The notes beneath the pieces were generated by a model, which saw only the letters and a list, made by a program, of their open reading frames with translations, ran no database searches and had not been told where the DNA came from. Shown here piece by piece: positions 21,733 through 34,529 of a stretch of DNA of 64,000 nucleotides (positions are counted from its first letter, which is position 1; the number at the start of each line of letters is the position of its first letter). The translations under genes and the position numbers were made by a program. Source of the DNA: an uncultured Sphaerochaeta sp. (lineage in GTDB: Bacteria > Spirochaetota > Spirochaetia > Sphaerochaetales > Sphaerochaetaceae); NCBI GenBank assembly GCA_963677075.1, contig OY781873.1:1759715-1823714 (forward strand), in the 5' to 3' direction.

Positions 21733-22266
21733 TTACTGCTTGCTTGCTCTCTCATAGATAGCCTCAATCTCTTCCTTGCCCATCATTTTAGAGAGAAGGA
21801 ATGCTATGATGATGATGCCTGGAATATCGATAAGCAACCGGGTAAGTGCAAATGGTGCTCCCAAGGCTGAGAATTCGAAGAGAATCATTGGTATCTTGGT
21901 TGTGGACCATGCCCCGATGAAGATAAGGATATTGGAGAATGTCACTCCCTTTTTCATAAACACCGCTGCCACAGGGAAAGCTCCGTACAGGGGGCCTGCA
22001 GCAGCAGAACCAATGAAAAGGGAGAGTAGTATACCTTTCAATCCACTCCCTTTCCCCATATATCTTACCATTGTCTGTTTGGGGACCCATACATCAAGCA
22101 GACCAAGCAGAATGAAGATTGGGGGTATGACCAATAACATTTCCTTTAATTGCATGACCGTAATATTGAATACGCCTGTTCCCAACTCTTTATTGAATAG
22201 GCTGACAATCCCCAACAGTACCAGAACTAGCAGGAATGAGCTGTAGCGTTTTACCAAAGTTGTCAT
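21733..22266 (-). CDS. Predicted permease half (DUF318/ArsP-like)
   Basis: GSAAAGPLYGAFPVAA; hydrophobic. Confidence 0.8.
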   Translation of the reverse strand: MTTLVKRYSSFLLVLVLLGIVSLFNKELGTGVFNITVMQLKEMLLVIPPIFILLGLLDVWVPKQTMVRYMGKGSGLKGILLSLFIGSAAAGPLYGAFPVAAVFMKKGVTFSNILIFIGAWSTTKIPMILFEFSALGAPFALTRLLIDIPGIIIIAFLLSKMMGKEEIEAIYERASKQ

Positions 22267-22748
22267 AATACCACCTCCAAAACTGTTCCAATAGTGAAGG
22301 CAACAACAAATGAGAATATGAATGCAAGTGTATTTCTATAAAGCGTCAAGCGCTTTCCAAAGTACTGTATCTCTATGGGTAGGGTTACTACACCCACCAT
22401 CATCAGCGTTGAGATGAAGGCTGCGATCTGCATATAGCCAGCCCCTCCCTCAAGAAGCAAGGCAGCGGTGGGGAATGCCACAAAACCTGGTATGAGGGTA
22501 ACTGAGCCTACAATGGCAGCAAGGACAACACCAATCCATCCAGAGTCCTTGCCAATAATCCTTACAATGGTCTCATGGTCGAGGATGCTGAGCAGGAGAC
22601 TGACGAATAGAATAACGACAAGAAATTGGGGAAGAATATTCTCAAATGCTCTCCACGCTTTTAAAAGCGCTTTCTTTGTCTTTTCCCTGTCCTTGAGAAA
22701 TGAGAGTACCAATAAAAGTGCTGTAACACTATAGAGTATCAGGTTCAT
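22263..22748 (-). CDS. Predicted permease half (DUF318/ArsP-like)
   Basis: GSVTLIPGFVAFPTAA; overlaps partner by 4 nt. Confidence 0.8.
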   Translation of the reverse strand: MNLILYSVTALLLVLSFLKDREKTKKALLKAWRAFENILPQFLVVILFVSLLLSILDHETIVRIIGKDSGWIGVVLAAIVGSVTLIPGFVAFPTAALLLEGGAGYMQIAAFISTLMMVGVVTLPIEIQYFGKRLTLYRNTLAFIFSFVVAFTIGTVLEVVL

Positions 22749-22963
22749 GTGAAGGTCCTTACAGTAAAGATAGAACAATGTATAGCAAATTTACTTGCTA
22801 TTGACAATCATATGTGCATATATTATGGGTATAACACATGAATAAGGGCATTGACGTCCCTTCGATGTAGATAGGTCTCCCATTATTTCCTTGCGAAATT
22901 GCTACTGGTGGAGTACGCTTGTGATAGAAGGGAGCTAGATAATATACGAAATGGAGGTTATGT

Positions 22964-23407
22964 ATGGCAAACGTACAATCAATTCTGGACCAAAAGGGAA
23001 GCACCGTTTACAGTATCACACCTGAGGATACCTTGGCTCATGCCCTTTTGAAACTTACCGAGCATAAGATTGGTGCACTGTTGGTACTTAATGAGAATGG
23101 GGATATCAAGGGTATTCTTTCAGAGCGTGATATCATCCGCCATTTTTCTCGCAGGCTGGAGCATTTGAACACTGCATCCATTCCGGTGAAGGAAGTGATG
23201 ACCGTTGGTGTTACCTGCATAAAGCCAGAGCAGAATCTTGATGATTGCTTGCAGCTAATGACTGCTGGCAGATTCCGCCACCTTCCTGTGGTGAATGAAG
23301 ACAAGGTGGTTGGTATGGTGTCAATTGGCGATGTTGTCAAGGCAGCTCTTGAGGAGCGTGACTTTGAGATCGGCGAATTGGAGCACTATATCACGAATGC
23401 CTACTAA
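22964..23407 (+). CDS. CBS-domain protein
   Basis: IGALLV..GILSERD and FRHLPVV...GMVSIGDVVK. Confidence 0.92.
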   Translation: MANVQSILDQKGSTVYSITPEDTLAHALLKLTEHKIGALLVLNENGDIKGILSERDIIRHFSRRLEHLNTASIPVKEVMTVGVTCIKPEQNLDDCLQLMTAGRFRHLPVVNEDKVVGMVSIGDVVKAALEERDFEIGELEHYITNAY

Positions 23408-23435
23408 AAGAGGGCATATTATAAATCTTTTTCAT

Positions 23436-23465
23436 AAAAGCGCTTCACTTTCGGGGCGCTTTTTA
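23436..23465. terminator. Intrinsic terminator
   Basis: AAAAGCGCTTC...GGGGCGCTTTTT. Confidence 0.6.
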
Positions 23466-23504
23466 TCATACTATTTAAGTAGGAATTAAATTGAAGGAGT
23501 TTGT

Positions 23505-24728
23505 ATGGACGAGAAAAAGATCCAGCGCCTGAAAACCATAATTGAGAAATTACACGCTGGAGTTTCCAGTGATTCGGTAAAACAGGAGTTCGAAGCAGAA
23601 TTTGGAACCATCAGTGCAGAAGATTTGGCGGCAGCAGAAAAGAAACTGATCGAAGATGGTGAGATTCAAGTAGAGCAGGTACAGAAGCTCTGTGACGTAC
23701 ATGCTTCCATTTTTGGTGGCAGTGTGGAAGAGATTCATGGTGGAAAGACCATCGAACAAACCCCCGGCCATCCCGCATTTGTGTTCCTGAAGGAAAATGA
23801 AGGCTTGCTCTCATTCCTCGATGGAGCGTTTTCAGCTGCAGTGAAGGCGTACAAACAAGAGAATAACGAACGTACCAGGGCTGACCTTCTCTCAGCACTC
23901 AAGAGCCTCAGTAAGCTCGATAACCACTATTCCAGAAAGGAGAACCTTTTCTTCCCGTACTTGGAGAAGGCTGGGATAACTGCTCCTCCAAAGGTGATGT
24001 GGGGAGTTGATGACGAAATCAGGGACCTATACAAGCTCCTGATCCGTACCCTCGAATCCTCAGACAAGGTTCTCGAGACCGAACTAACCCATGTCGAAGA
24101 GCAAGTGAGAAGCATGATCGACAAGGAGAACAACATTCTTATGCCTATGCTTCAGGGTTGCATGGATAAAGATGCCTGGTTGATTGTTGCTCGAGATAGT
24201 GCTGACATCGGATACTGCTTTAATGGTGGGATAGAAGGTGCAAGCCCCTCAGATGCAACCACGTGGTACCGCTGGAATGCAACCATGAGTGGAAAGGATG
24301 ATTTTGCCTCCAAACAGGAGACAAGTGGAGAGGTTACGCTCCCTAGTGGTCATTTTACCCTGGAAGAGCTGACATGGATGCTGAATACCATGCCTGCTGA
24401 TATCACCTTTGTTGGTGCCGATGACAAGGTCCGTTTCTTCAGTGAGGGAAAGGAACGTGTATTCCCAAGAACAAGGAGTATCATCGGACGTGATGTTGAA
24501 CATTGTCATCCACCAAAGAGTCTTGCTGTTGTAGAGAAGCTGGTTTCTGACTTCAAGGCAGGAATCAAGGACAGTGAGTCTTTCTGGATTCAGAAAGGTT
24601 CCAAGTTCATTTTGATCCGCTATTATGCAGTGAGAAACAACAACCAGGAGTACCTGGGTGTGCTAGAGGTGACGGAAGAAATTTCTGAGCTGAGAAGCCT
24701 GGATGGTCAGAAGACCTTGCTTGGTTGA
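23505..24728 (+). CDS. DUF438 / hemerythrin-like / PAS protein
   Basis: LCDVHAS, GHP...EN, HYSRKENLFFPYLE, MWGVDDEIR, PAS with CHPPKS. Confidence 0.85.
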   Translation: MDEKKIQRLKTIIEKLHAGVSSDSVKQEFEAEFGTISAEDLAAAEKKLIEDGEIQVEQVQKLCDVHASIFGGSVEEIHGGKTIEQTPGHPAFVFLKENEGLLSFLDGAFSAAVKAYKQENNERTRADLLSALKSLSKLDNHYSRKENLFFPYLEKAGITAPPKVMWGVDDEIRDLYKLLIRTLESSDKVLETELTHVEEQVRSMIDKENNILMPMLQGCMDKDAWLIVARDSADIGYCFNGGIEGASPSDATTWYRWNATMSGKDDFASKQETSGEVTLPSGHFTLEELTWMLNTMPADITFVGADDKVRFFSEGKERVFPRTRSIIGRDVEHCHPPKSLAVVEKLVSDFKAGIKDSESFWIQKGSKFILIRYYAVRNNNQEYLGVLEVTEEISELRSLDGQKTLLG

Positions 24729-24767
24729 TCATTAGACCAATCATGTATTTGAAGAGCTACAGGGCGA

Positions 24768-25040
24768 TTACTTGTTCTGTAGCTCTTTTTTCATCTTGTC
24801 GATGAATGCAATATAGGCATAGATCTGCCCTTGGATCTCGCTGTTCTTCAATTCCCCACGTCCAACCCAATCCTGTCCTTCATAGACCGTGAGATGGTGA
24901 AGCTCTCCTTCAATATCGATGAGAGACAGGGGAGCCATCTTCTGTCGATTCTCCAGGTACAACATTGTCCTATCATATGATTCGTGGAATACTCTCTCTT
25001 CTCCAGTGAGGTCGGGATCAAGATTATGGGTAGTGTTCAT
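24768..25040 (-). CDS. Hypothetical protein, last gene of the ndh-hepT operon
   Basis: 8 nt downstream of the prenyl synthase gene with AGGA RBS. Confidence 0.6.
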   Translation of the reverse strand: MNTTHNLDPDLTGEERVFHESYDRTMLYLENRQKMAPLSLIDIEGELHHLTVYEGQDWVGRGELKNSEIQGQIYAYIAFIDKMKKELQNK

Positions 25041-25048
25041 AGCAATTC

Positions 25049-26035
25049 CTATACTGAGCGAGCAGATAATTTTTCAAACAGGGAAGTCAACATACGCACA
25101 ACCTCAGGATTGCCGAGGCGGTGTATTTCTTCCAAGGCTCGCTTTCTATAGGATTCTGCAAGAAATTGCGCTTTTTGTATACCACCCAGTTTCTCAACCA
25201 ATGTAAGAACGTTTGTTGTGGTACGCTGGTCCAGTGGGATTTTCTTGTCGCTGAGCATACTCTTCAGCTCATGTTTGCCCAACTCGTTCTCTATCTCCAG
25301 GGCACAGATGAGTGGGAGGGTAGGGATTCCACTCTTTACGTCCCCACCGGTATGTTTGCCGAGTTTCTTGCTGCTTCCGATATAATCAAGAATATCATCC
25401 TGGATCTGGAAAGCCATTCCCATGCAATAACCGATATGGTGCGCGAGTTTACTGGTTGCATCATTGATTTCCTGTAGCGCCGCTCCGCTGTAACAGCTGA
25501 GCGCAAACAGACTGGCGGTCTTACCCCCAATACGGCGCAAATACGTACTTCGGTCAATGAAGAAGTCCCCCTGCCCAGCATCCTGGTCAAGTTCACTTTC
25601 ACACAGTCGCGTCAGTGCTCGTGATACAACCTGACTATCCATCCCTCGCTCTTTCCCACTGGTCAGCATCAATGCTCGCGCCAAGAGAAAATCTCCTGCC
25701 AAAACAGCTTGCTTTGCTCCAACCTTGGCAAAGACCGAGGCTCTTCCCCGTCGTTTTTGGGCACCGTCGATGATATCATCATGTACCAAAGATGCAAGAT
25801 GAATGAGTTCAATAACTGAGCCCACCCTGATTGCATCCTCACTGCGATCCTCATCGCCGATCTTGCTGGTGATGAGGACCAAGGCAGGACGAAGCATCTT
25901 GCCGGTGCTGTTCACATGGTCTTCCAGGATTGGCCTGATAAAACCATGTGCTGTAGCAACAGTCTGTTCAATGGTGTTGCGGACTACCTGAAGTTGTGCT
26001 TGGATATGAGGCTCATCGTCCCAAAACTCTGACAT
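25049..26035 (-). CDS. hepT: Polyprenyl (heptaprenyl-type) diphosphate synthase
   Basis: GKMLRP, HDDIID (FARM), RRG, FQIQDDILD (SARM). Confidence 0.88.
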   Translation of the reverse strand: MSEFWDDEPHIQAQLQVVRNTIEQTVATAHGFIRPILEDHVNSTGKMLRPALVLITSKIGDEDRSEDAIRVGSVIELIHLASLVHDDIIDGAQKRRGRASVFAKVGAKQAVLAGDFLLARALMLTSGKERGMDSQVVSRALTRLCESELDQDAGQGDFFIDRSTYLRRIGGKTASLFALSCYSGAALQEINDATSKLAHHIGYCMGMAFQIQDDILDYIGSSKKLGKHTGGDVKSGIPTLPLICALEIENELGKHELKSMLSDKKIPLDQRTTTNVLTLVEKLGGIQKAQFLAESYRKRALEEIHRLGNPEVVRMLTSLFEKLSARSV

Positions 26036-26041
26036 GATTGC

Positions 26042-28039
26042 CTACTTCCTGCCCAACTTTCTTTCCATTTGCTTCTTCGTGAATTCTGGTTCATCGAGAT
26101 AGAAATAGGTTTTCTTTGCAAGTGGGGTCTTGTTCCAAAGCTTCTTGATATACGGCATAACCCAGTAATCCAACCCGAAAGCCTTTCCAGCTCCCCCAAG
26201 CATAACAATGGATACTGCCATATACCAAAGAATCTCCTTGCCCGCCAGAGCTCCGATGAGGAACATGACAGAGAGTCCAAGCGAGACAATGGCTGCTGGG
26301 AACGTAAAGAGACCAGCTAGGAACAACAGTCCAATACCGAGCTCTGCAAGGACGATCATAATCTGGAAGAAGTAGGGAGCCTGTGCTACGAAGGTATCGT
26401 TTATCCAGGTGAAGATGGCAAGAGGTTCAGAGAGAAGAGGTGGTGCAAACTGCTCAACTGCACCAGCAGCTGCATCTCCTGCCGCTTGGCTTGCAGAGGC
26501 TACGGTCTCCACTGCTGCCTGGCTGGCTGATGCTACCGTCTCTACCGCTGCCTGACTGGCTGATGCTACCGTCTCTACCGCTGCCTGGCTGGCTGATGCC
26601 CAGCTGTCAGCTGATTCTGCCCCAGCTGGAGCGCCCCAATATACTTTCGATCCAGTGGTGTCGGTGAGCCATCCTTTGTTGATTTTCCCGATGCCTTCAA
26701 TGAGCCACATGACTCCGAGATACATTCTCAGGAACACAGTCCAGTAGGAAGGAACTTTATAGGTAGCCATCCCTCCAATGAGAGAACGTCTGTCCTTGAC
26801 CTCAAGAATCTCATGTTTGAGGTATCCCCAGATTGCGTTGACACCGCATACTCCGCTCTGATAATACAGGTTCACCAGATGCTTGAGTGCCATGGCGAAG
26901 AATCCTGAGAGAGAGATCCCAGCAGTATGGCTAACCGCGTATGTTCCACCGATGGACACCATATACCCATGGAAATTTGACTTATAGGGCTTTGGAGGAG
27001 TTGCTTTCAGCCCAAGTTCCTGCTTGATGGTATAGACAATACCGTCGGCAGCGGTCTTTGCGGTCTGCTCTGCAGCCTCGACTATCTGAGGTACTGCTCT
27101 ATTATCCTCGATGAACCACATGCCATCCCCAGCGAGATAGACATTCTTGTAGTCTGGGCTCTGCATGAACTCATTGACAGCCTTTCTTCCAATCTTTCCA
27201 TCGGTGAGGGGGAGTCTTTCGCAGAATTCAGTACCACGGACACCGCAGGTCCATACCAGCGTTTCTGTCTTGATGACATCTCCGTTCTTGGTGGTGAATC
27301 TATCTGCTTCAACATTGGTGATCAGGCTGTTGAGCATAATCTCAACACCCTTCTTTTCCATACGTTTGACTGCCTTCTCTCGGGGTTTCTCAGGAAGCAT
27401 GTTGAGGATGTTTCCCAGTCCCTCACAGTTGATCAAGCGTACTTCTTTCTTAAAGTCGATACCGTGCTTCTTGCACAGGATGGGAAGCCACTCGGTCAGC
27501 TCGCCAATAAGCTCTACACCGGTAAAACCACCGCCTGCAACTACAAAAGTGAGCATCTGCTTGCGCTTTTCCTCATCAGCTTCCTTGACAGCCTTACGTA
27601 CCGTGCATTCAATATGAGTGCGGAGCTTCAATGCATCCTCAAGACTCCAGAGATAGAAAGCGTGTTCCTTGACTCCTGGAATATTGAAATCGGCAGTCTG
27701 AGCACCAGTGCTGATAAGAAGCTGATCATAGGAGTAGGTGGACCTTTCTCCAGCTAGCACCTGCTTCTCGAAATCAATGCTGGTAATTTTGTCTTGTACC
27801 ACCCTAACCATCTTGCCGGAAAAAATACGGTCAAAGGAGATCTTTACCGATGCTTCATCAACACGATTTCCTGCAACTTCATGCAGCTCGGTCATGAGAA
27901 TATGGTGGCGGTTCTTGTCGATCAAGGTAATCTCAACCTTGTCTTTCTGTTTCTTGAATGCCTTGTGCAGTGCTTTTGCTGCATGCACACCTGCATAGCC
28001 TCCACCTAAAATAACAATCTGTTTCTTATCCATCATCAC
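26042..28039 (-). CDS. ndh: Type II NADH dehydrogenase fused to a DoxX-like membrane domain
   Basis: ILGGGYAG and VAGGGFTGVE; C-terminal FLRMYLGVMWLIEG..K..W and ELGIGLLFLAGLFT. Confidence 0.88.
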   Translation of the reverse strand: MMMDKKQIVILGGGYAGVHAAKALHKAFKKQKDKVEITLIDKNRHHILMTELHEVAGNRVDEASVKISFDRIFSGKMVRVVQDKITSIDFEKQVLAGERSTYSYDQLLISTGAQTADFNIPGVKEHAFYLWSLEDALKLRTHIECTVRKAVKEADEEKRKQMLTFVVAGGGFTGVELIGELTEWLPILCKKHGIDFKKEVRLINCEGLGNILNMLPEKPREKAVKRMEKKGVEIMLNSLITNVEADRFTTKNGDVIKTETLVWTCGVRGTEFCERLPLTDGKIGRKAVNEFMQSPDYKNVYLAGDGMWFIEDNRAVPQIVEAAEQTAKTAADGIVYTIKQELGLKATPPKPYKSNFHGYMVSIGGTYAVSHTAGISLSGFFAMALKHLVNLYYQSGVCGVNAIWGYLKHEILEVKDRRSLIGGMATYKVPSYWTVFLRMYLGVMWLIEGIGKINKGWLTDTTGSKVYWGAPAGAESADSWASASQAAVETVASASQAAVETVASASQAAVETVASASQAAGDAAAGAVEQFAPPLLSEPLAIFTWINDTFVAQAPYFFQIMIVLAELGIGLLFLAGLFTFPAAIVSLGLSVMFLIGALAGKEILWYMAVSIVMLGGAGKAFGLDYWVMPYIKKLWNKTPLAKKTYFYLDEPEFTKKQMERKLGRK
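26481..26600 (-). repeat. 33-bp (11-aa) tandem repeat in the DoxX loop, about 3.6 copies
   Basis: GCTGCCTGRCTGGCTGATGCTACCGTCTCTACC at 26514 and 26547, partial at 26580, synonymous variant at 26481; encodes ASASQAAVETV. Confidence 0.9.
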
Positions 28040-28242
28040 GTTCCTTGTTGGCCCTGTACGGGTACAGCGAGAATTATTTGGAAGGTGAGAAGAGTCTTAC
28101 CATCCCACCTGGTCTCACAAGAAGGCACTCTAGCATAAAACTAGGAATTAATGCAATTATACCATGTTTTTATCGATACAAAATACACATATCCTTGAAT
28201 ATTCTTGTGCTACAAACCTCTCCACTCTGTAAGGTAATTCTC

Positions 28243-28261
28243 CTGTAAGCGTTACTTACAG
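28243..28261. promoter_or_regulatory. Inverted repeat, candidate operator
   Basis: CTGTAAG-CGTTA-CTTACAG in the AT-rich divergent intergenic region. Confidence 0.45.
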
Positions 28262-28490
28262 TAAAGAAAATTTGAAAATTTTTTTGTGCACATTTTTGAT
28301 ATCAGAGTAAAACAATGGGTATGCTATTACTAATAAGTTTATTCTTTGTAAGTAATTAATAACACTTTATCGTTACTGAAAATTTATATTGATAATTTTA
28401 TGACGATATTGCATGAGTGTCAAAAATCAGTATATGATTATATATAAATAATGTTTGAACGATTTTCAAGTATTTGAGGAGTATCTTACG

Positions 28491-29789
28491 ATGAAGAAAC
28501 ATCTATTGCTGGTTCTGACCGTCTTGGCTATCATGCTTGCCTTTGTTGGCTGCGCCAAGTCAGAGAGTGAAGAGACCCAGGCAGCTGTTGCTGCACCGAA
28601 AGCTGAGCCGACTGTTTCCACACCGGCACCTGCAGCACCTGCAGCAACCGAAACGTATGCTGATGGCGTGTATTTCGCCGCAGGTGACACCTTTGCTTCT
28701 TCCGGTTGGAAGGAGACAGTAACCCTTACTGTCGAAGGTGGGAAGATCACTGATGCTGACTGGAATGCAGTTAACATCAATGCTGGCGCTGACAAGAAGA
28801 GCTATGACCGGGCTGGCAAGTACAACATGGTCAAGTTCGGTAGTGCCCAGGCTGAGTGGTATGAACAGGCTGAGAAGGCTGAGGCTTACTTGCTTGAGAC
28901 CCAAGATCCTTCCGCCATCACCTACAAGGATGATGAAGGTCACACCGATGCAATCGCCGGAGTATCCGTCCATGTTGATGCCTTCTTCGACCTCGCAAGC
29001 GAAGCACTCGCTGCTGGTCCTGTTGGCCGTGGTCCATACGAGGATGGTGCATACTTCGCCATTGCAGATTCCTATCCTTCCTCTGGTTGGAAAGAATATG
29101 TCTCCTTGACCGTACTCAATGGCCGCATTGCTGCTGTCAACTGGAGTGCAGTCAATAGGGCAGGCGATGACAAGAAGCCGTACGACAAGGCCGGTAACTA
29201 TAATATGGTCAAGTTCGGTGGAGCACAGGCAGAGTGGTATGAGCAGGCTGCCAAGGCAGAAGCATACTTGCTTGAGACCCAGGACCTTGATGGTATCACC
29301 TACAAGGATGATGATGGTCACACCGATGACATCGCGGGTGTCTCCATCCATGTTGATGCTCTCTACAACCTTGCCAAGGAAGCTCTTGCAGCTGGCCCAA
29401 CTGAGATCGGTCCCTTCAAGGATGGTTCCTACTATGCGAGCGAAGAGGCTTTCAGTTCCTCCGGTTGGAAAGGCTATGTCTCCTTGTTGGTAAACAACGG
29501 CAACATTGAGAATGTGTACTGGAGTGCAGTGGACAAAGACGGCCGTGACAAGAAGCAGGTTGCTGCTGATGGTGAATATGGCATGTTGGCACGTAGTGCG
29601 ATCGGTAAGGAGTGGCATGAACAGGCGGCTGCTGTCGAGGCATACCTGCTCTCCACCCAGGATCCAAAAGAGATCACCTATAAGGACGAGGACGGCCACA
29701 CCGATGATATCGCCGGTGCATCCATCCATGTCAACGATTTCTATGCTTTGGTTGAGGCAGCACTTGCTGCAGGACCAAAGAAGTATTAA
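28491..29789 (+). CDS. Lipoprotein with three FMN-binding domains
   Basis: Lipobox FVGC, Ala/Pro linker, three repeats each ending TDxIAG[VA]S[VI]HV. Confidence 0.85.
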   Translation: MKKHLLLVLTVLAIMLAFVGCAKSESEETQAAVAAPKAEPTVSTPAPAAPAATETYADGVYFAAGDTFASSGWKETVTLTVEGGKITDADWNAVNINAGADKKSYDRAGKYNMVKFGSAQAEWYEQAEKAEAYLLETQDPSAITYKDDEGHTDAIAGVSVHVDAFFDLASEALAAGPVGRGPYEDGAYFAIADSYPSSGWKEYVSLTVLNGRIAAVNWSAVNRAGDDKKPYDKAGNYNMVKFGGAQAEWYEQAAKAEAYLLETQDLDGITYKDDDGHTDDIAGVSIHVDALYNLAKEALAAGPTEIGPFKDGSYYASEEAFSSSGWKGYVSLLVNNGNIENVYWSAVDKDGRDKKQVAADGEYGMLARSAIGKEWHEQAAAVEAYLLSTQDPKEITYKDEDGHTDDIAGASIHVNDFYALVEAALAAGPKKY

Positions 29790-29809
29790 TCGAACATTTC
29801 ATGATTTTC

Positions 29810-29836
29810 TCCCCGGGATCTTCCCGGGGATTTTTT
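29810..29836 (+). terminator. Intrinsic terminator
   Basis: TCCCCGGG-ATCTT-CCCGGGGA followed by T6. Confidence 0.85.
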
Positions 29837-29882
29837 CTCTCTATCATGTGCAATTCTGCTATAATCAACGCTGGAGAATTTC

Positions 29883-30476
29883 ATGGAGATTGACTATGTC
29901 TCGGTATTCATTTTTACCTTTGTGACCACGTTTACCCCAGGTCCAAATACCATCAGTAGTGCAATGATAGGGATACAGGTGGGTTATAGGCGTAGCATCC
30001 CATATTTCTTGGGAATAGCAACCGGCTTTTTCTCCATCATGCTCCTTGGTGGGCTCTTTGCTTCCCTTCTAGTTCGCGTGCTTCCTAAGGTGATGCAGGT
30101 GTTCTCTTATATAGGGGCAGCGTACATCCTCTATCTTGCCTACCGTGTCCTGCATGCTGATTATGCACTTTCCGAGCAGAGCACAAAACTGCTGGGCTAC
30201 AAGGATGGGTTGTTGTTGCAGCTCTTCAATCCAAAGGTACTGGTCCTTGCCCTTACCATCTATACAACATTTCTTGGTTCCATGGACCGGAGTATACCAG
30301 CCTTGTTCTTGAGTGCTCTCTTTCTTACAACGATGAGTTTCTCTGCAATCTCACTCTGGGCTTCCTTTGGTGCTGCGTTCTCGCAATTCCTTACCACACA
30401 GAAGACCAGGCGATTGGTGAATGGCCTGCTGGCACTGCTGCTTGTCTATAGTGCAATCACGTTGTTAGTTTCCTGA
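29883..30476 (+). CDS. LysE/RhtB-family exporter
   Basis: FTPGPNT, GAAYILYLAY, LFNPK. Confidence 0.9.
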   Translation: MEIDYVSVFIFTFVTTFTPGPNTISSAMIGIQVGYRRSIPYFLGIATGFFSIMLLGGLFASLLVRVLPKVMQVFSYIGAAYILYLAYRVLHADYALSEQSTKLLGYKDGLLLQLFNPKVLVLALTIYTTFLGSMDRSIPALFLSALFLTTMSFSAISLWASFGAAFSQFLTTQKTRRLVNGLLALLLVYSAITLLVS

Positions 30477-30480
30477 GTAA

Positions 30481-30516
30481 AGAAAGAAAAACCCCCTGCC
30501 GTTTAGGGCAAGGGGT
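30481..30516 (-). terminator. Terminator of the ABC operon (possibly bidirectional)
   Basis: ACCCCCTGCC...GGCAAGGGGT hairpin with an A-tract on its left. Confidence 0.7.
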
Positions 30517-30542
30517 CTGGGTATTAGAATAAACGTACGGTC

Positions 30543-31322
30543 CTATTCATCATCCTGTGGGGGAAGTACCTGTTTCAGGAAGGCGAGGGTTCGTTCTTCC
30601 TTTGGAGCACTGAACATTTCCTCAGGGGGAGCTTCCTCAAGAATGACTCCTTCATCCATGAAGATGACACGGTCTGCAACCTCCTTGGCGAACCACATCT
30701 CATGGGTTACCACCAACATCGTCATCCCCTTGTTTGCAAGGTCAGTCATGACTGAGAGTACCTCACCAACCAGCTCGGGATCGAGTGCGCTGGTAGGTTC
30801 GTCGAAGAGCATAATCTCGGGCTCCATGGCAAGCGCACGGGCAATGGCGACACGTTGTTTCTGCCCGCCGCTAAGCATGGCTGGGTAGACATCTGCTTTG
30901 TCGCTCAGTCCAACCTGCTCAAGAATCTCGAGGCCTTTCTTCCTTGCTTTGTCCTTGGGCATCTTCTTGACATGTACCATTCCTTCCATCACATTGCCGA
31001 TTACCGTCATGTGGGGGAAGAGATTGAAGTGCTGGAAAACCATCCCAAGACCCTGGCGGACCTTGTTCAGTTGTTTTTCCTGTTGCTTTACTCGCTTGCC
31101 ATCAACGTATATCTTCCCTTTCTGGGCTTTCTCCAGAAAGTTTACACAGCGCAGCAGCGTACTTTTGCCACTTCCCGAGGCGCCGATGATTACCACCACT
31201 TCGCCCCGCTTAACTTCAAGGTTTATGTCCTTAAGAACTTCCAGGTCCCCGAACCACTTCTTGAGATGTTCTATCTTCAGGATTGTTTCATCTGTCTTAT
31301 GTGTTTGTTTAGTCATGGTCAC
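30543..31322 (-). CDS. Polar amino-acid ABC transporter ATPase
   Basis: [37 protein letters not shown]. Confidence 0.95.
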
Positions 31323-31977
31323 TCACCTTCAATCTTTGTTCGATGCGATGCATCACGAATGAGAGCAGGCTCGTCATGATCAGGTACCAGATGCCGACAA
31401 TAAGGAACATCTCCATGTACATGAAGGAGGAAGAGCCCATCTGCCTTCCCTTGAGCATGAGCTCTGGAACGGCAATGGTGGATGCAAGGCTGCTGTCCTT
31501 CAATGCGATGATCAACTGGTTGCCCAATGGGGGGACAGCTCGCTTGAAAGCTTGTGGGAGCACAATACGTTGCATTGCCTTTCCCTGGGTCATGCCCAAG
31601 CTTCGGGCAGCTTCCATCTGCCCATAATCGATGGACTGGATGGACCCACGGAAAATCTCAGCAATGTACGCACCATTATGTACACCAAGAGCAATGATCG
31701 CAGAGGGGATGGGGTCGATGGTTACAATGCTGGTAAGTCCGTAGTAAATGATGAACAACTGCACCAGCAGAGGTGTTCCTCTGATGAGGAAGATGTAAGC
31801 TCTACTGATGGCACTTATCCATTGACGTTTGGAAAGGCGGCCGAGAGCGGCCACCAATCCAATAATAAGACCAAGTAGAATCCCGAAAAAGGTGATCTGT
31901 AGCGTATAGAGTGCTGCATCAGCGAATTGGAAAAAACGCTGGGGAATCACCGTTAGATCCCATGGTAATATACTCAT
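31309..31977 (-). CDS. Polar amino-acid ABC transporter permease
   Basis: [27 protein letters not shown]. Confidence 0.95.
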
Positions 31978-31991
31978 TCTAGGATTCTCCC

Positions 31992-32777
31992 TTACTCTAC
32001 GGTAATGTCTTCACCGTTGAACCACTTTTCACTAATCTGTTTCATGGTGCCATCGGCAAACATATCGCTGAGTGCGGCATTGACCTGCTCACGGAGCTCA
32101 TCGTCATCCTCATGGAAACCTATGCCCATGACTTCACTACGGAGTACCGATCCTACGAGCGTAAGCTTGTCTCCATCCTTCAACTGGTTGATGGCATTCA
32201 GTCCAACAATCCTGTCAGTCAGGACGCCGTCCACACGACCGTTGAGCAGTTCAATCAAAGTCTGGTTGTCATCTTCATAGAGTTTAACCTTGGTGCCAAG
32301 TTTCTTTGCATCATTCTCAAAGGTGGTACCAGTTACCAGCCCAAGGGTATTATCACTGGTAAGGTCCTCAACAGAATTGATACCGCCGTCCTTCATGGCT
32401 ATCAACTGTGGGCCACTGTAATAGTAAGGGATGGAGAAGTCGATGACTGCCTCGCGTTCTTCTGTGATTCCCATACTGCCCAGAATTCCGTCATAGCGTT
32501 TTGCCCTGAGGCCTTCAACAATTCCGTCCCATGCAGTGGCTACGTATTCCAGTTCCATATCCAGACGGTTGGCGATCTCAGCAGCAACATCAACATCAAA
32601 GCCGATGATGTCTCCATCTTCCGTCATGTAGTTGAATGGAGGGTATCCACCGGAACCAGCGAAGGTGATGGTATTTGTAGTTTCCATTTGACCTTGGGCA
32701 ACCAAGGCAGGAAGCGAAATCAGTAACATCAATCCAATAATAAGCAACTTTCGATACAATTTGTTCGTATTTTTCAA
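31992..32777 (-). CDS. Polar amino-acid ABC substrate-binding protein
   Basis: GYPPFNY...GFDVDVA; TTG start with AAAGGAG RBS. Confidence 0.92.
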   Translation of the reverse strand: MKNTNKLYRKLLIIGLMLLISLPALVAQGQMETTNTITFAGSGGYPPFNYMTEDGDIIGFDVDVAAEIANRLDMELEYVATAWDGIVEGLRAKRYDGILGSMGITEEREAVIDFSIPYYYSGPQLIAMKDGGINSVEDLTSDNTLGLVTGTTFENDAKKLGTKVKLYEDDNQTLIELLNGRVDGVLTDRIVGLNAINQLKDGDKLTLVGSVLRSEVMGIGFHEDDDELREQVNAALSDMFADGTMKQISEKWFNGEDITVE

Positions 32778-32933
32778 AATAAACTCCTTTGAAAAAATTG
32801 ATATAGAATTGTAACAATGAATAGCTATTACATACAACTGTAAAACAGCTATTTCTTTACCCTTAATGCTTTGTGTGCTTTTACTGTTTATAACATGGTC
32901 AGGTATAAATAGTTTACTAGGGGTACTTTACCC

Positions 32934-34529
32934 TTGATTAAACAAAAAAAGAATGCTATAAATTATAACATGGTTTCGAGATTATCACGCCCAAAAGTCA
33001 TTGAAATTGTCAATAAGAAGAATCATGTCACCTATTTATACGAGGACCAGTACTACTGGGACCCTGATAAAAAACAGACACGGCATAAACGTCGATGCAT
33101 CGGTAAACTCGATGGAGTAACGGGAGAGCCAATCTATAACCCTACATATCAGCAGGAGCTGGAGAGTCAGGGAACGGAGACGGTGAAAGCGATTCCTTCA
33201 TTCCGGTCCTATGCATTTGAGCAGTTGCAGGAAGTCATTGAAAAGGAGCTCAGCCTGAGAGAGTGGATGCAGCCACTCATGAGTGAGGAGAAGGTGGAGA
33301 AAATCCTGCATCTTGCTTGGTACCTTATCTGTTCAAACAATCCCATCTCCTATGCTACCCATTGGAAACAAGGAATCTATACGAGTGTGGAGAGTTTGGT
33401 AGAACTGCAGGGAATCCTTCGCTCCCTGGACGCTGAGTTTCTCCGAATCTGGGGACAACGTTGTCTGGAAAATTTTAATGAGAATTCCAGCGAAATCATA
33501 TTTGACCTTTGCAGTACTGCCAGTTATCAGAACCATAACCCATTTCTCCAATATGGTTACAACCGTGATATAGAGGCCTTGGAACAGAATACCATCATCT
33601 TACTAGCTCATGGTGATAGTCACCTCCCATACTCGTTCCAGATTCTCGATGGGACGATGCTCAGCAGCAAGACCATTGCGAATGTGATGGATACGCTGGA
33701 AGTCGATACCGATACAGTATTGATGCTCAATCGCAGATACTTCTCAATCCCCAGGATTCAGGAGTTGGTGGAACTGGGGTACCAGTTCATTATCCGCATC
33801 CCAACTCGAAAGCGATGGTTGGAGCAATTCATTGAAAAACATCGTGATGAGATTGTTGTGGGGACAACGCTCTATGACTGCAAGGGTAGGGAGCTGAGGA
33901 GTCTGAGTCTCTCTGCACCCTTCCTGGAGGAGGAGTCTCTTACCATTCATCTCTATTATGATGAGCAGTGGAGAGAGAGCCAGCGGAGCAATCTCCTTTC
34001 CTTGTTGGGGAGATGTAAACGAGAACTGGAGTTTGAAGTACCGCTTGAGGAGCATGCCCGATTATATGAAACCTATTTCAAGGTACGAAAACGCCCCAAT
34101 GGAAGTAATAGGGTCAGTCTAAGCCGTGACCCACTGAGAACCTTTGAGGCCTCCCAGGCAGGTTTCTGGGCAGTGATCACAAACACAGGGCTCTCAGCAG
34201 AACAAGCCCTTGCCAAGTATGAACAGCGCAATGACTTTGAACATCGATTCAATAACCTTATGAACCAAGAGGACTGCAGGTTGTTGCATGTCCAGTCTCC
34301 CCAGAATTTTCCTGGTAGGGTATTTCTCCAACTCATCTCTGAGATCATCCGGCAGAAATTGTTGGAAAAGTTGGAAGATACCGATTACAGCCTGAGCCAG
34401 GCACTCTTTACAGTTATGGATATCCAGGAAGTTACATTCAGAGAAAATGATACTCCTTATAGGAGTGAGCTGAATGAACGAGACAAGGAAATCCTTGGGA
34501 AGCTTGGCATTGTGGTAGAAGAAGCATAG
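32934..34529 (+). CDS. IS1634-like transposase, probably catalytically degenerate
   Basis: YLYE..YYWDPDKKQTR..R.CIGK N-terminus; FD, GYNRD, LNRRYFS (DRG expected), YEQR..FEHRF; no inverted repeats seen. Confidence 0.7.
   Translation: MIKQKKNAINYNMVSRLSRPKVIEIVNKKNHVTYLYEDQYYWDPDKKQTRHKRRCIGKLDGVTGEPIYNPTYQQELESQGTETVKAIPSFRSYAFEQLQEVIEKELSLREWMQPLMSEEKVEKILHLAWYLICSNNPISYATHWKQGIYTSVESLVELQGILRSLDAEFLRIWGQRCLENFNENSSEIIFDLCSTASYQNHNPFLQYGYNRDIEALEQNTIILLAHGDSHLPYSFQILDGTMLSSKTIANVMDTLEVDTDTVLMLNRRYFSIPRIQELVELGYQFIIRIPTRKRWLEQFIEKHRDEIVVGTTLYDCKGRELRSLSLSAPFLEEESLTIHLYYDEQWRESQRSNLLSLLGRCKRELEFEVPLEEHARLYETYFKVRKRPNGSNRVSLSRDPLRTFEASQAGFWAVITNTGLSAEQALAKYEQRNDFEHRFNNLMNQEDCRLLHVQSPQNFPGRVFLQLISEIIRQKLLEKLEDTDYSLSQALFTVMDIQEVTFRENDTPYRSELNERDKEILGKLGIVVEEA

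Follow-up and report, generated by a model that had tools for sequence, protein, structure and literature searches.

A putative FLEET-type electron-transfer locus in the genome of an uncultured Sphaerochaeta

A 64,000-nt stretch of the genome of an uncultured Sphaerochaeta sp. (contig OY781873.1, positions 1,759,715 to 1,823,714; the whole stretch analyzed is hereafter called the window) carries, at positions 24768-29789, genes for a type II NADH dehydrogenase (NDH-2) fused to a DoxX/DoxD-like membrane domain, a polyprenyl synthase, a conserved 90-amino-acid (aa) protein, and a predicted lipoprotein with three flavin mononucleotide (FMN)-binding domains. Protein architecture, gene content and synteny suggest that this locus probably encodes the core of an extracytoplasmic electron-transfer chain of the Listeria/Lactiplantibacillus type, i.e., one belonging to the flavin-based extracellular electron transfer (FLEET) systems. 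An earlier note on this DNA, made from its sequence alone, had proposed a chain analogous to that of Listeria; the FLEET core stood up to closer analysis, but the PplA match, the Ndh2 architecture and the synteny point to a homolog and not a mere analog. The FLEET set of Listeria monocytogenes and Lactiplantibacillus comprises Ndh2, PplA, FmnB/ApbE, EetA, EetB, DmkA, and DmkB (PMC9888254; PMC8837199), and reference features were drawn from later open papers and the supplement of Meheust 2021. By sequence, all architectural features that were tested were recognizable apart from synthesis of the quinone head group.

Organization of the locus and its two principal proteins

The locus consists of two divergent transcription units, and its four open reading frames (ORFs) lay exactly where the earlier note had placed them, with the fusion, the polyprenyl synthase and the small ORF in one operon divergent from the lipoprotein gene (Table 1). 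The minus-strand genes are spaced by just 6 and 8 nt, i.e., they form a tight operon in the order ndh2, polyprenyl synthase (pps), 90-aa ORF.

The ndh2 product matched Pyr_redox_2 (Pfam; E 1e-38), and the best match of its residues 6-400 in the Protein Data Bank (PDB) was the NDH-2 YjlD (1.8e-59). The NDH-2 domain (~1-400) is followed by a C-terminal four-helix DoxX/DoxD-like membrane domain (~425-665; four transmembrane [TM] helices predicted), which scored 22.9 bits against DoxX, just below the cut-off of 23.6. When cluster representatives at 50% identity were searched exhaustively, a few dozen full-length fusions (33-69% identity) were obtained, 25 of which were aligned; DoxX was matched by 17 of these and DoxD by eight. 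The alignment, read together with hydropathy, showed residues R438, G442, W445, K452, D624, and P629 of the membrane part to be invariant. Throughout the family the loop between TM1 and TM2 is long, Ala/Ser/Thr-rich and hypervariable in length, and in the window protein it holds a tandem repeat (Table 1). One metatranscriptome contig was short of exactly one 33-nt unit of this repeat (it skips 26556-26588).

The earlier note had regarded the DoxX domain as the membrane link of the chain, a view that gave way to a standard FLEET Ndh2 architecture when the catalog of Meheust 2021 was consulted. That catalog defines extracellular electron transfer (EET) by the presence of a transmembrane helix in the NADH dehydrogenase of a flavinylation cluster. 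Its supplement lists the FLEET Ndh2 of Lactiplantibacillus pentosus as Pyr_redox_2+DoxD (637 aa), with NusG_II, Hpre_diP_synt_I, an FMN_bind lipoprotein of two domains and ApbE around it, and gives Pyr_redox_2+DoxX as the architecture of a Niameybacter Ndh that precedes polyprenyl_synt. Since the Lactiplantibacillus FLEET Ndh2 is itself annotated in this manner, fusion of NDH-2 to DoxX/DoxD is a hallmark and defining feature of FLEET-type Ndh2, and no new membrane link.

Translation of the lipoprotein likely begins with the ATG at 28491, behind a GAGGAG; this start gives a signal peptide, MKKHLLLVLTVLAIMLAFVG, ending directly ahead of the Cys of a lipobox (...AFVG-C). The protein scored 89 bits (E 3e-25) against the NCBIfam PplA model NF041941, whose equivalog cut-off is 325, and 21.2 bits against Pfam FMN_bind, whose cut-off is 22; we regard it as a PplA homolog on sequence grounds, not as a certified equivalog. 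Its domains form a repeat with a 378-nt period (Tandem Repeats Finder [TRF] score 873), with 69% and 50% identity to domain 1, and each ends in D-x-I-A-G-[VA]-S. The three AG[VA]S motifs that the earlier note had reported, at 28947, 29325, and 29703, were found at precisely these positions, and they are no chance pattern, since they occupy equivalent positions in homologous domains.

In the PDB, the best match of the lipoprotein was 2kzx (E 3.7e-41), which shares ~60% identity with domain 1 across 118 residues and reads DAISGAT, the canonical ApbE motif, at the aligned site. 2kzx, a protein of Clostridium thermocellum that the PDB table gives as 'Uncharacterized protein', has one domain and no assigned function, whereas the window lipoprotein has three domains. 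The 120 full-length homologs recovered were mostly labeled Sphaerochaeta or Spirochaetia, and JGI names relatives of the lipoprotein only 'major membrane immunogen'. Motif counts among these 120 were 183 for AGVS, 26 for SGVS, 14 for AGAS, 13 for AGAT, and seven for SGAT, with few others; the Gly and the terminal Ser/Thr were invariant across the ~260 motif instances, and the canonical SGAT/TGAT occurred among the same orthologs. A search for shorter proteins returned single-domain relatives of Clostridia type with an FMN-binding annotation, including one from Fervidicella metallireducens, as well as spirochete ones. According to a review, the ApbE motif is D-x-x-[S/T]-G-A-[S/T], an Ala-to-Val change retained ~50% of flavinylation in another system, and Ser accepts FMN less well than Thr (PMC12052999). 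Compared with the canonical motif, all three window sites keep the Asp, the Gly and the terminal Ser and carry Ala at -3, while position -1 is occupied twice by Val and once by Ala.

Table 1. Features of the locus, in window positions.
Feature	Position	Strand	Basis
ndh2, 665-aa NDH-2 fusion	26042-28039	-	Pyr_redox_2 + DoxX/DoxD-like domain
Polyprenyl synthase (pps; DmkB-type, long-chain type), 328 aa	25049-26035	-	PF00348
Conserved 90-aa ORF, end of operon	24768-25040	-	orthologs
pplA-like lipoprotein gene, 444-aa ORF	28455-29789 (likely start 28491)	+	PplA model, lipobox
FMN-binding domain 1 of three homologous domains, ~126 aa each	28653-29030	+	domain alignment
FMN-binding domain 2	29031-29408	+	domain alignment
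FMN-binding domain 3	29409-29786	+	domain alignment
Predicted flavinylation site 1, DAIAGVS, Ser171 of the 444-aa ORF	28947-28967	+	alignment, 2kzx
Predicted flavinylation site 2, DDIAGVS, Ser297 of the 444-aa ORF	29325-29345	+	alignment
Predicted flavinylation site 3, DDIAGAS, Ser423 of the 444-aa ORF	29703-29723	+	alignment
33-nt x 3.4 tandem repeat, SASQAAVETVA copies, in predicted periplasmic TM1-TM2 loop of DoxX-like domain	26487-26599	-	TRF
Divergent intergenic region, 451 bp, A+T-rich, control regions of both units	28040-28490	.	sequence
Terminator-like hairpin + T-run, 3' of pplA	29810-29830	+	

Conserved context, phyletic pattern and quinone supply

A scan of species-representative genomes for the Ndh2 fusion gave at least 595 confirmed relatives, and genomic context was taken from the best 80 of these loci, which came from Spirochaetota (Sphaerochaetaceae, Spirochaetaceae, Treponemataceae, Rectinemataceae, Marispirochaeta) and Clostridia. 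Among the 80, pps lay directly downstream of ndh2 in 73, apbE was near ndh2 in 31, and a pplA-like gene was near it in 28, distant Clostridia included. Clustering of neighboring ORFs revealed two more recurrent genes, NusG_II and Hpre_diP_synt_I (domains confirmed on locus L021), which, going by the gene order of the L. pentosus cluster, we equate with EetA and EetB, respectively. Many Sphaerochaetaceae-like sister loci showed the arrangement pplA (-), NusG_II and two Hpre_diP_synt_I (+), and apbE (-), next to ndh2, pps and the small ORF (+). Within the genus of the window, ndh2 has pplA as its immediate neighbor, and ApbE, NusG_II, Hpre_diP_synt_I, and UbiA are located elsewhere. A quick tree of Ndh2 from the 80 loci placed the window protein inside a Sphaerochaetaceae clade, spread the fusion over several spirochete families and split Bacillota from Spirochaetota on one well-supported branch. 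Since plain-NDH-2 outgroups fell inside this tree, it gives no root or donor, and a direction of transfer between Clostridia and Spirochaetota is not derivable from it.

As the earlier note had stated for the window, no apbE, NusG_II or Hpre_diP_synt_I was found in the locus and its flanks (21733-34529), and the genome copies lie 75-100 kb away, outside the 64-kb window. That note had made its reading depend on an ApbE in the genome, and there is one, of lipoprotein type (317 bits, lipoprotein signal), at C1:1709539-1710375 in genome coordinates, 75 kb from the locus. NusG_II (125 aa) and a fused 380-aa Hpre_diP_synt_I protein are encoded at about C1:1686500-1687880, 98 kb from the locus. The stand-alone ApbE gene adjoins a TonB/ExbD/ExbB/TonB-dependent receptor cluster and a DUF1508 gene (C1:1704887-1710472; L012:4888-10472). 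The NusG_II and Hpre_diP_synt_I genes lie directly upstream, on the same strand, of a gene for a 908-aa AdhE-type aldehyde/alcohol dehydrogenase (C1:1683532-1687878; L097:3533-7878) and divergent from genes for two response regulators and a histidine kinase, a neighborhood that could be linked to fermentative redox balance.

We surveyed 41 Sphaerochaetaceae genomes, which are related to one another, so that the counts are descriptive. The ndh2 fusion was present in 15, and the pplA-like lipoprotein in the identical 15, about 1-6 kb from ndh2 wherever both matches sat on an assembled contig. A PF00348 prenyl synthase likewise occurred in 15 genomes (14 of those with ndh2, the miss having ndh2 at a contig end, and one other), and UbiA in 16 (all 15 with ndh2 and the same extra genome). 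All but one (G025) of the 26 genomes that have neither the Ndh2 fusion nor PplA were also without UbiA and prenyl synthase. The specific co-inherited module is thus ndh2, pplA, pps, and ubiA, and since pps and ubiA track ndh2/pplA almost exactly, these genes provide a marker set for it.

A different pattern was seen for ApbE (39 of 41), NusG_II (39 of 41), and Hpre_diP_synt_I (40 of 41), which often form an adjacent trio (e.g., G008 C25:1001-2732, G020 C87:9327-11004, and G037 C20:8161-9869). Because these genes are near-universal in the family, their presence in the window's genome is weak evidence for the chain, and ApbE in particular says little since it is required anyway for Rnf and Nqr-like complexes. 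In genomes free of ndh2 and pplA, the role of the EetA/EetB-type proteins cannot be electron transfer from quinone to PplA; one idea is that NusG_II and Hpre_diP_synt_I serve in flavin trafficking to ApbE, and the near-universal occurrence of the pair and ApbE without Ndh2/PplA puts in question an electron-carrier role of EetA/EetB as against such trafficking. The window's genome also has an NqrB/C/D/E/F-like operon with no NqrA and a shortened NqrB, beside a GGDEF protein (C1:2999777-3003657; L013:4777-8657), and a separate RnfCDGEAB-like operon (L014).

The polyprenyl synthase (PF00348, E 1e-59) is encoded by the sole PF00348 gene of the genome, and its best NCBIfam matches were large subunits of heptaprenyl and hexaprenyl synthases, all below cut-off. 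The residues before its first DDxxD are small (...LASLVHDDIID), and by the known chain-length rule small residues at this point go with a long product; the sequence fits an enzyme making a long-chain product. A role as housekeeping farnesyl diphosphate synthase was rejected, since PF00348 is altogether absent from 26 of the 41 family genomes and the synthase gene follows the distribution of ndh2. Those 26 genomes raise the question of where these bacteria obtain the farnesyl primer for undecaprenyl phosphate.

The single UbiA of the genome (C1:2544704-2545456) best matched polyprenyltransferases acting on 1,4-dihydroxy-2-naphthoate (DHNA), at 173 bits and below the cut-offs; UbiA adjoins ndh2 in seven related loci, and one such UbiA is 45% identical to the genome's own copy. 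The earlier note had proposed a search of the genome for quinone genes, and these were there only in part: prenyl synthase and UbiA are present, but searches of the genome (98% complete, one contig) found no MenB, no MenD over the cut-off and no MqnA/D of the futalosine pathway, and MenB over the cut-off was found in none of the 41 genomes. Judged by its gene content, the host apparently prenylates a naphthoate head group but cannot make one, and since genes for a head-group pathway are missing, DHNA or a similar head group would be imported. L. plantarum likewise does not synthesize DHNA and carries out FLEET-dependent EET only with supplied DHNA or another quinone (PMC9888254; PMC10746273), and for this DHNA-dependent EET it needs Ndh2 as well as PplA (PMC9888254). 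Considering that this functional FLEET organism also lacks the pathway, head-group synthesis is not strictly FLEET-defining. These results suggest a DHNA-dependent, L. plantarum-like chain that would regenerate NAD+.

The genome was also searched for two quinol outlets, cytochrome bd and a periplasmic flavinylated FAD_binding_2 reductase, and neither was found. Since there is no CydA, an aerobic NDH-2/cytochrome bd chain was ruled out. The sole sizeable FAD_binding_2 match, a 666-aa cytoplasmic protein that lacks a signal peptide, was rejected as a terminal reductase, and a weak FMN_bind match (L005) proved to be a beta-lactamase-like protein. At C1:2551113-2551229 (-) (L011:13114-13230; L004), the C-terminal half of FMN_bind was matched at 29.4 bits in a 132-codon open frame that holds no start-codon ORF of at least 40 aa; the match was discarded as an FMN_bind protein and may be a gene remnant.

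Proposed mechanism, related systems and alternative readings

If the locus operates as a FLEET-type chain, NADH would reduce the FAD of Ndh2, which in turn would reduce a (demethyl)menaquinone-like prenylated naphthoquinone made from an imported or scavenged naphthoate head group (DHNA or similar). The periplasmic lipoprotein ApbE would attach FMN to Ser171, Ser297, and Ser423 of the PplA-like lipoprotein, and quinol electrons would pass to these FMNs either directly or via the EetA/EetB-type NusG_II and Hpre_diP_synt_I proteins. From there they would be transferred to an acceptor outside the cytoplasm, which might be free flavins or quinones, Fe(III), or a periplasmic partner. For an obligate fermenter, the gain would be extra NAD+ regeneration, similar to the 'hybrid' metabolism described for L. 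plantarum.

The likeness to the Listeria/Lactiplantibacillus FLEET loci comprises an Ndh2 with a C-terminal DoxD/DoxX-type domain, a tandem-FMN PplA lipoprotein divergent from ndh2, a dedicated prenyl diphosphate synthase, and, in the genome, ApbE, NusG_II, Hpre_diP_synt_I and a MenA-like prenyltransferase; the lack of DHNA synthesis is shared with L. plantarum. Unlike FLEET, the Sphaerochaeta system belongs to a spirochete, presumably a diderm host, its lipoprotein carries three FMN domains, not two, and AG[VA]S instead of [S/T]GA[S/T], its operon has the extra conserved 90-aa gene, and its locus is split, with ApbE and the EetA/EetB-type genes at the distances given above and ubiA about 0.76 Mb off.

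This kind of system is already known, since the catalog of Meheust 2021 (eLife, supplementary file 1) includes a cluster from the spirochete Sediminispirochaeta bajacaliforniensis with Hpre_diP_synt_I, a lipoprotein ApbE, a 695-aa NDH-2 (Pyr_redox_2+DoxD) and polyprenyl_synt. Both loci have an NDH-2 fusion followed by a polyprenyl synthase in a spirochete host. However, the S. bajacaliforniensis cluster was located via its adjacent ApbE and has no PplA-type gene in the listed neighborhood, whereas the Sphaerochaeta locus has a three-domain PplA adjacent and its ApbE is remote; since the lipoprotein falls just under the FMN_bind cut-off, the pipeline of Meheust 2021 could have missed it. A literature search found no experimental work on, or explicit discussion of, FLEET in spirochetes. 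Experiments have shown that TP0171 (Tp15), a periplasmic lipoprotein of Treponema pallidum, receives covalent FMN from the ApbE homolog Ftp (PMC4436053). Likened by description only, TP0171 resembles the window protein as a spirochetal lipoprotein with an NqrC-type FMN site, but its one domain has Thr as the acceptor, and no Ndh2/quinone module has been reported from T. pallidum. Multi-flavinylated proteins contain several ApbE-type FMN domains for which a long-distance relay has been proposed, and three- and four-flavin examples have been characterized (Meheust 2021; PMC10339131). The window lipoprotein is likewise a predicted extracytoplasmic protein with several FMN domains; the characterized proteins are from other lineages, and a PDB search with the window lipoprotein gave no match to their solved domains.

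Several points weigh against a FLEET-type chain at this locus. Both the PplA and the FMN_bind scores of the lipoprotein are below curated cut-offs, and no terminal acceptor, in the form of a periplasmic flavinylated FAD_binding_2 reductase, was found in the genome. ApbE and the EetA/EetB-type genes are near-universal even where ndh2 and pplA are absent and may serve Rnf and the Nqr-like complex. Spirochetes are diderm, and since the host presumably is so too, the lipoprotein may stay in the periplasm and the chain may end short of the cell exterior. Finally, the flavinylation motif departs from the canonical one at two positions, and Ala-to-Val alone halved flavinylation elsewhere (PMC12052999).

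The point about cell architecture leads to the possibility, real though not probable in our estimate, that the same proteins act in the periplasm only, in assimilatory Fe(III) reduction, oxidant detoxification or a periplasmic reductase system, with no export of electrons across the outer membrane. Apart from the double membrane of spirochetes, this would accord with TP0171 as a periplasmic flavinylated lipoprotein (PMC4436053), with the colocalization of flavinylation and iron-transporter genes in Meheust 2021, and with the TonB-dependent receptor/ExbB/ExbD/TonB cluster beside ApbE in the window's genome. However, this last neighborhood may be due to chance, given that apbE adjoins ndh2 in sister genomes, and the search of the genome for a FAD_binding_2-type periplasmic reductase bearing a flavinylation motif was negative. 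Furthermore, spirochetes are able to put lipoproteins on the cell surface. A bolder proposal, which we consider doubtful, is that the tri-flavin lipoprotein, surface-exported or bridging the periplasm, forms together with Ndh2 and a scavenged quinone a cytochrome-free conduit across the double membrane, with AG[VA]S read by a co-evolved ApbE. Were this true, flavin-based EET would be widespread in free-living Spirochaetota, considering the at least 595 relatives of the fusion and the span of the best 80 over Spirochaetota and Clostridia, and fermenters would be tied to quinone-producing neighbors.

The FMN domains might also lack covalent FMN altogether, with AG[VA]S being no substrate of ApbE and flavin being bound non-covalently or not at all. 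The Ala in place of Ser/Thr at -3 and the Val at -1 in two of three sites lend this some weight, as Ala-to-Val and Thr-to-Ser each reduce flavinylation in tested systems (PMC12052999). It nonetheless seems unlikely, given the invariant Gly and final Ser/Thr, the canonical motifs among orthologs, the occurrence of apbE nearby in 31 of the 80 loci and the ~50% of flavinylation that was left after Ala-to-Val (PMC12052999). Still less likely is that the two transcription units are functionally separate, with Ndh2 and the prenyl synthase maintaining a quinone pool (e.g., for the Nqr-like complex) and the lipoprotein being an unrelated antigen that binds or traffics flavin. The NqrBCDEF-like operon, the below-cut-off family scores of the lipoprotein and the 'major membrane immunogen' name would be consistent with such a division, but ndh2 and the lipoprotein gene are found close together and in one and the same set of 15 genomes, distant Clostridia as well have a pplA-like neighbor of ndh2, and the architecture is that of experimentally studied FLEET loci. 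A chain running mainly inward, with reduced flavins, quinones or a cathode as electron donors to the quinone pool, is very improbable: L. plantarum FLEET has been reported to support cathodic electron uptake (PMC10701730), but neither of the quinol-consuming reductases searched for (cytochrome bd; flavinylated periplasmic FAD_binding_2-type) was found in the genome, and a fermenter usually needs a sink for NADH.

Digesters, sediments, and bioelectrochemical reactors commonly harbor Sphaerochaeta and its relatives, which are regarded as plain fermenters. If the FLEET-type chain works, it would give them a respiratory-like NADH sink dependent on the quinone precursors of neighbors, and a mechanism described for Gram-positive bacteria would then apply to a diderm phylum as well.

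Transcript coverage, control regions and the 90-aa protein

Four metatranscriptome studies (digester, sediment, wastewater, and compost) gave contigs that cover all four genes at 90-99% identity, i.e., the contigs come from close relatives, and one 6-kb contig runs across the small ORF, pps and most of ndh2. RNA libraries may hold DNA, and the contigs show neither strand nor level; since contig depths of pplA and ndh2 cannot rank the genes, differences in depth were left aside. RNA contigs from three runs ended at 28087-28091 and restarted at 28460-28490, and 28128-28295 was covered by none, a gap that gives a weak hint of divergent 5' ends. An Rfam search of the 451-bp intergenic region returned no relevant riboswitch or other RNA at E<=1, and a sigma-70 promoter scan gave six sites where 7.3 were expected, so that promoter-like hexamers were not above chance.

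The 90-aa protein has 12 orthologs (41-88% identity) with an invariant GQDWxGRG motif, and its AlphaFold model (pLDDT 85) shows three helices of a soluble protein. It belongs to no Pfam or NCBIfam family, and the model had no significant fold match in the PDB. The ORF had tblastn matches in 14 of the 80 related loci, and the 11 clustered copies that were checked all came from Sphaerochaetaceae-like loci with an Ndh2 65-92% identical to that of the window. A function as the small subunit of a HepS/HexA-type synthase was rejected, since it has no family and no fold match and is missing from most ndh2-pps loci.

Convergent to the ndh2 operon lies a gene at 23505-24728 (+) for a protein with DUF438, hemerythrin and PAS_10 domains, which could be a sensor of O2, NO or iron. 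Its position is kept in six of the closest Sphaerochaeta loci, and a seventh, weaker match (L041) lies ~5 kb off. A bidirectional hairpin at 24751-24788 is common to this gene and the 90-aa ORF.

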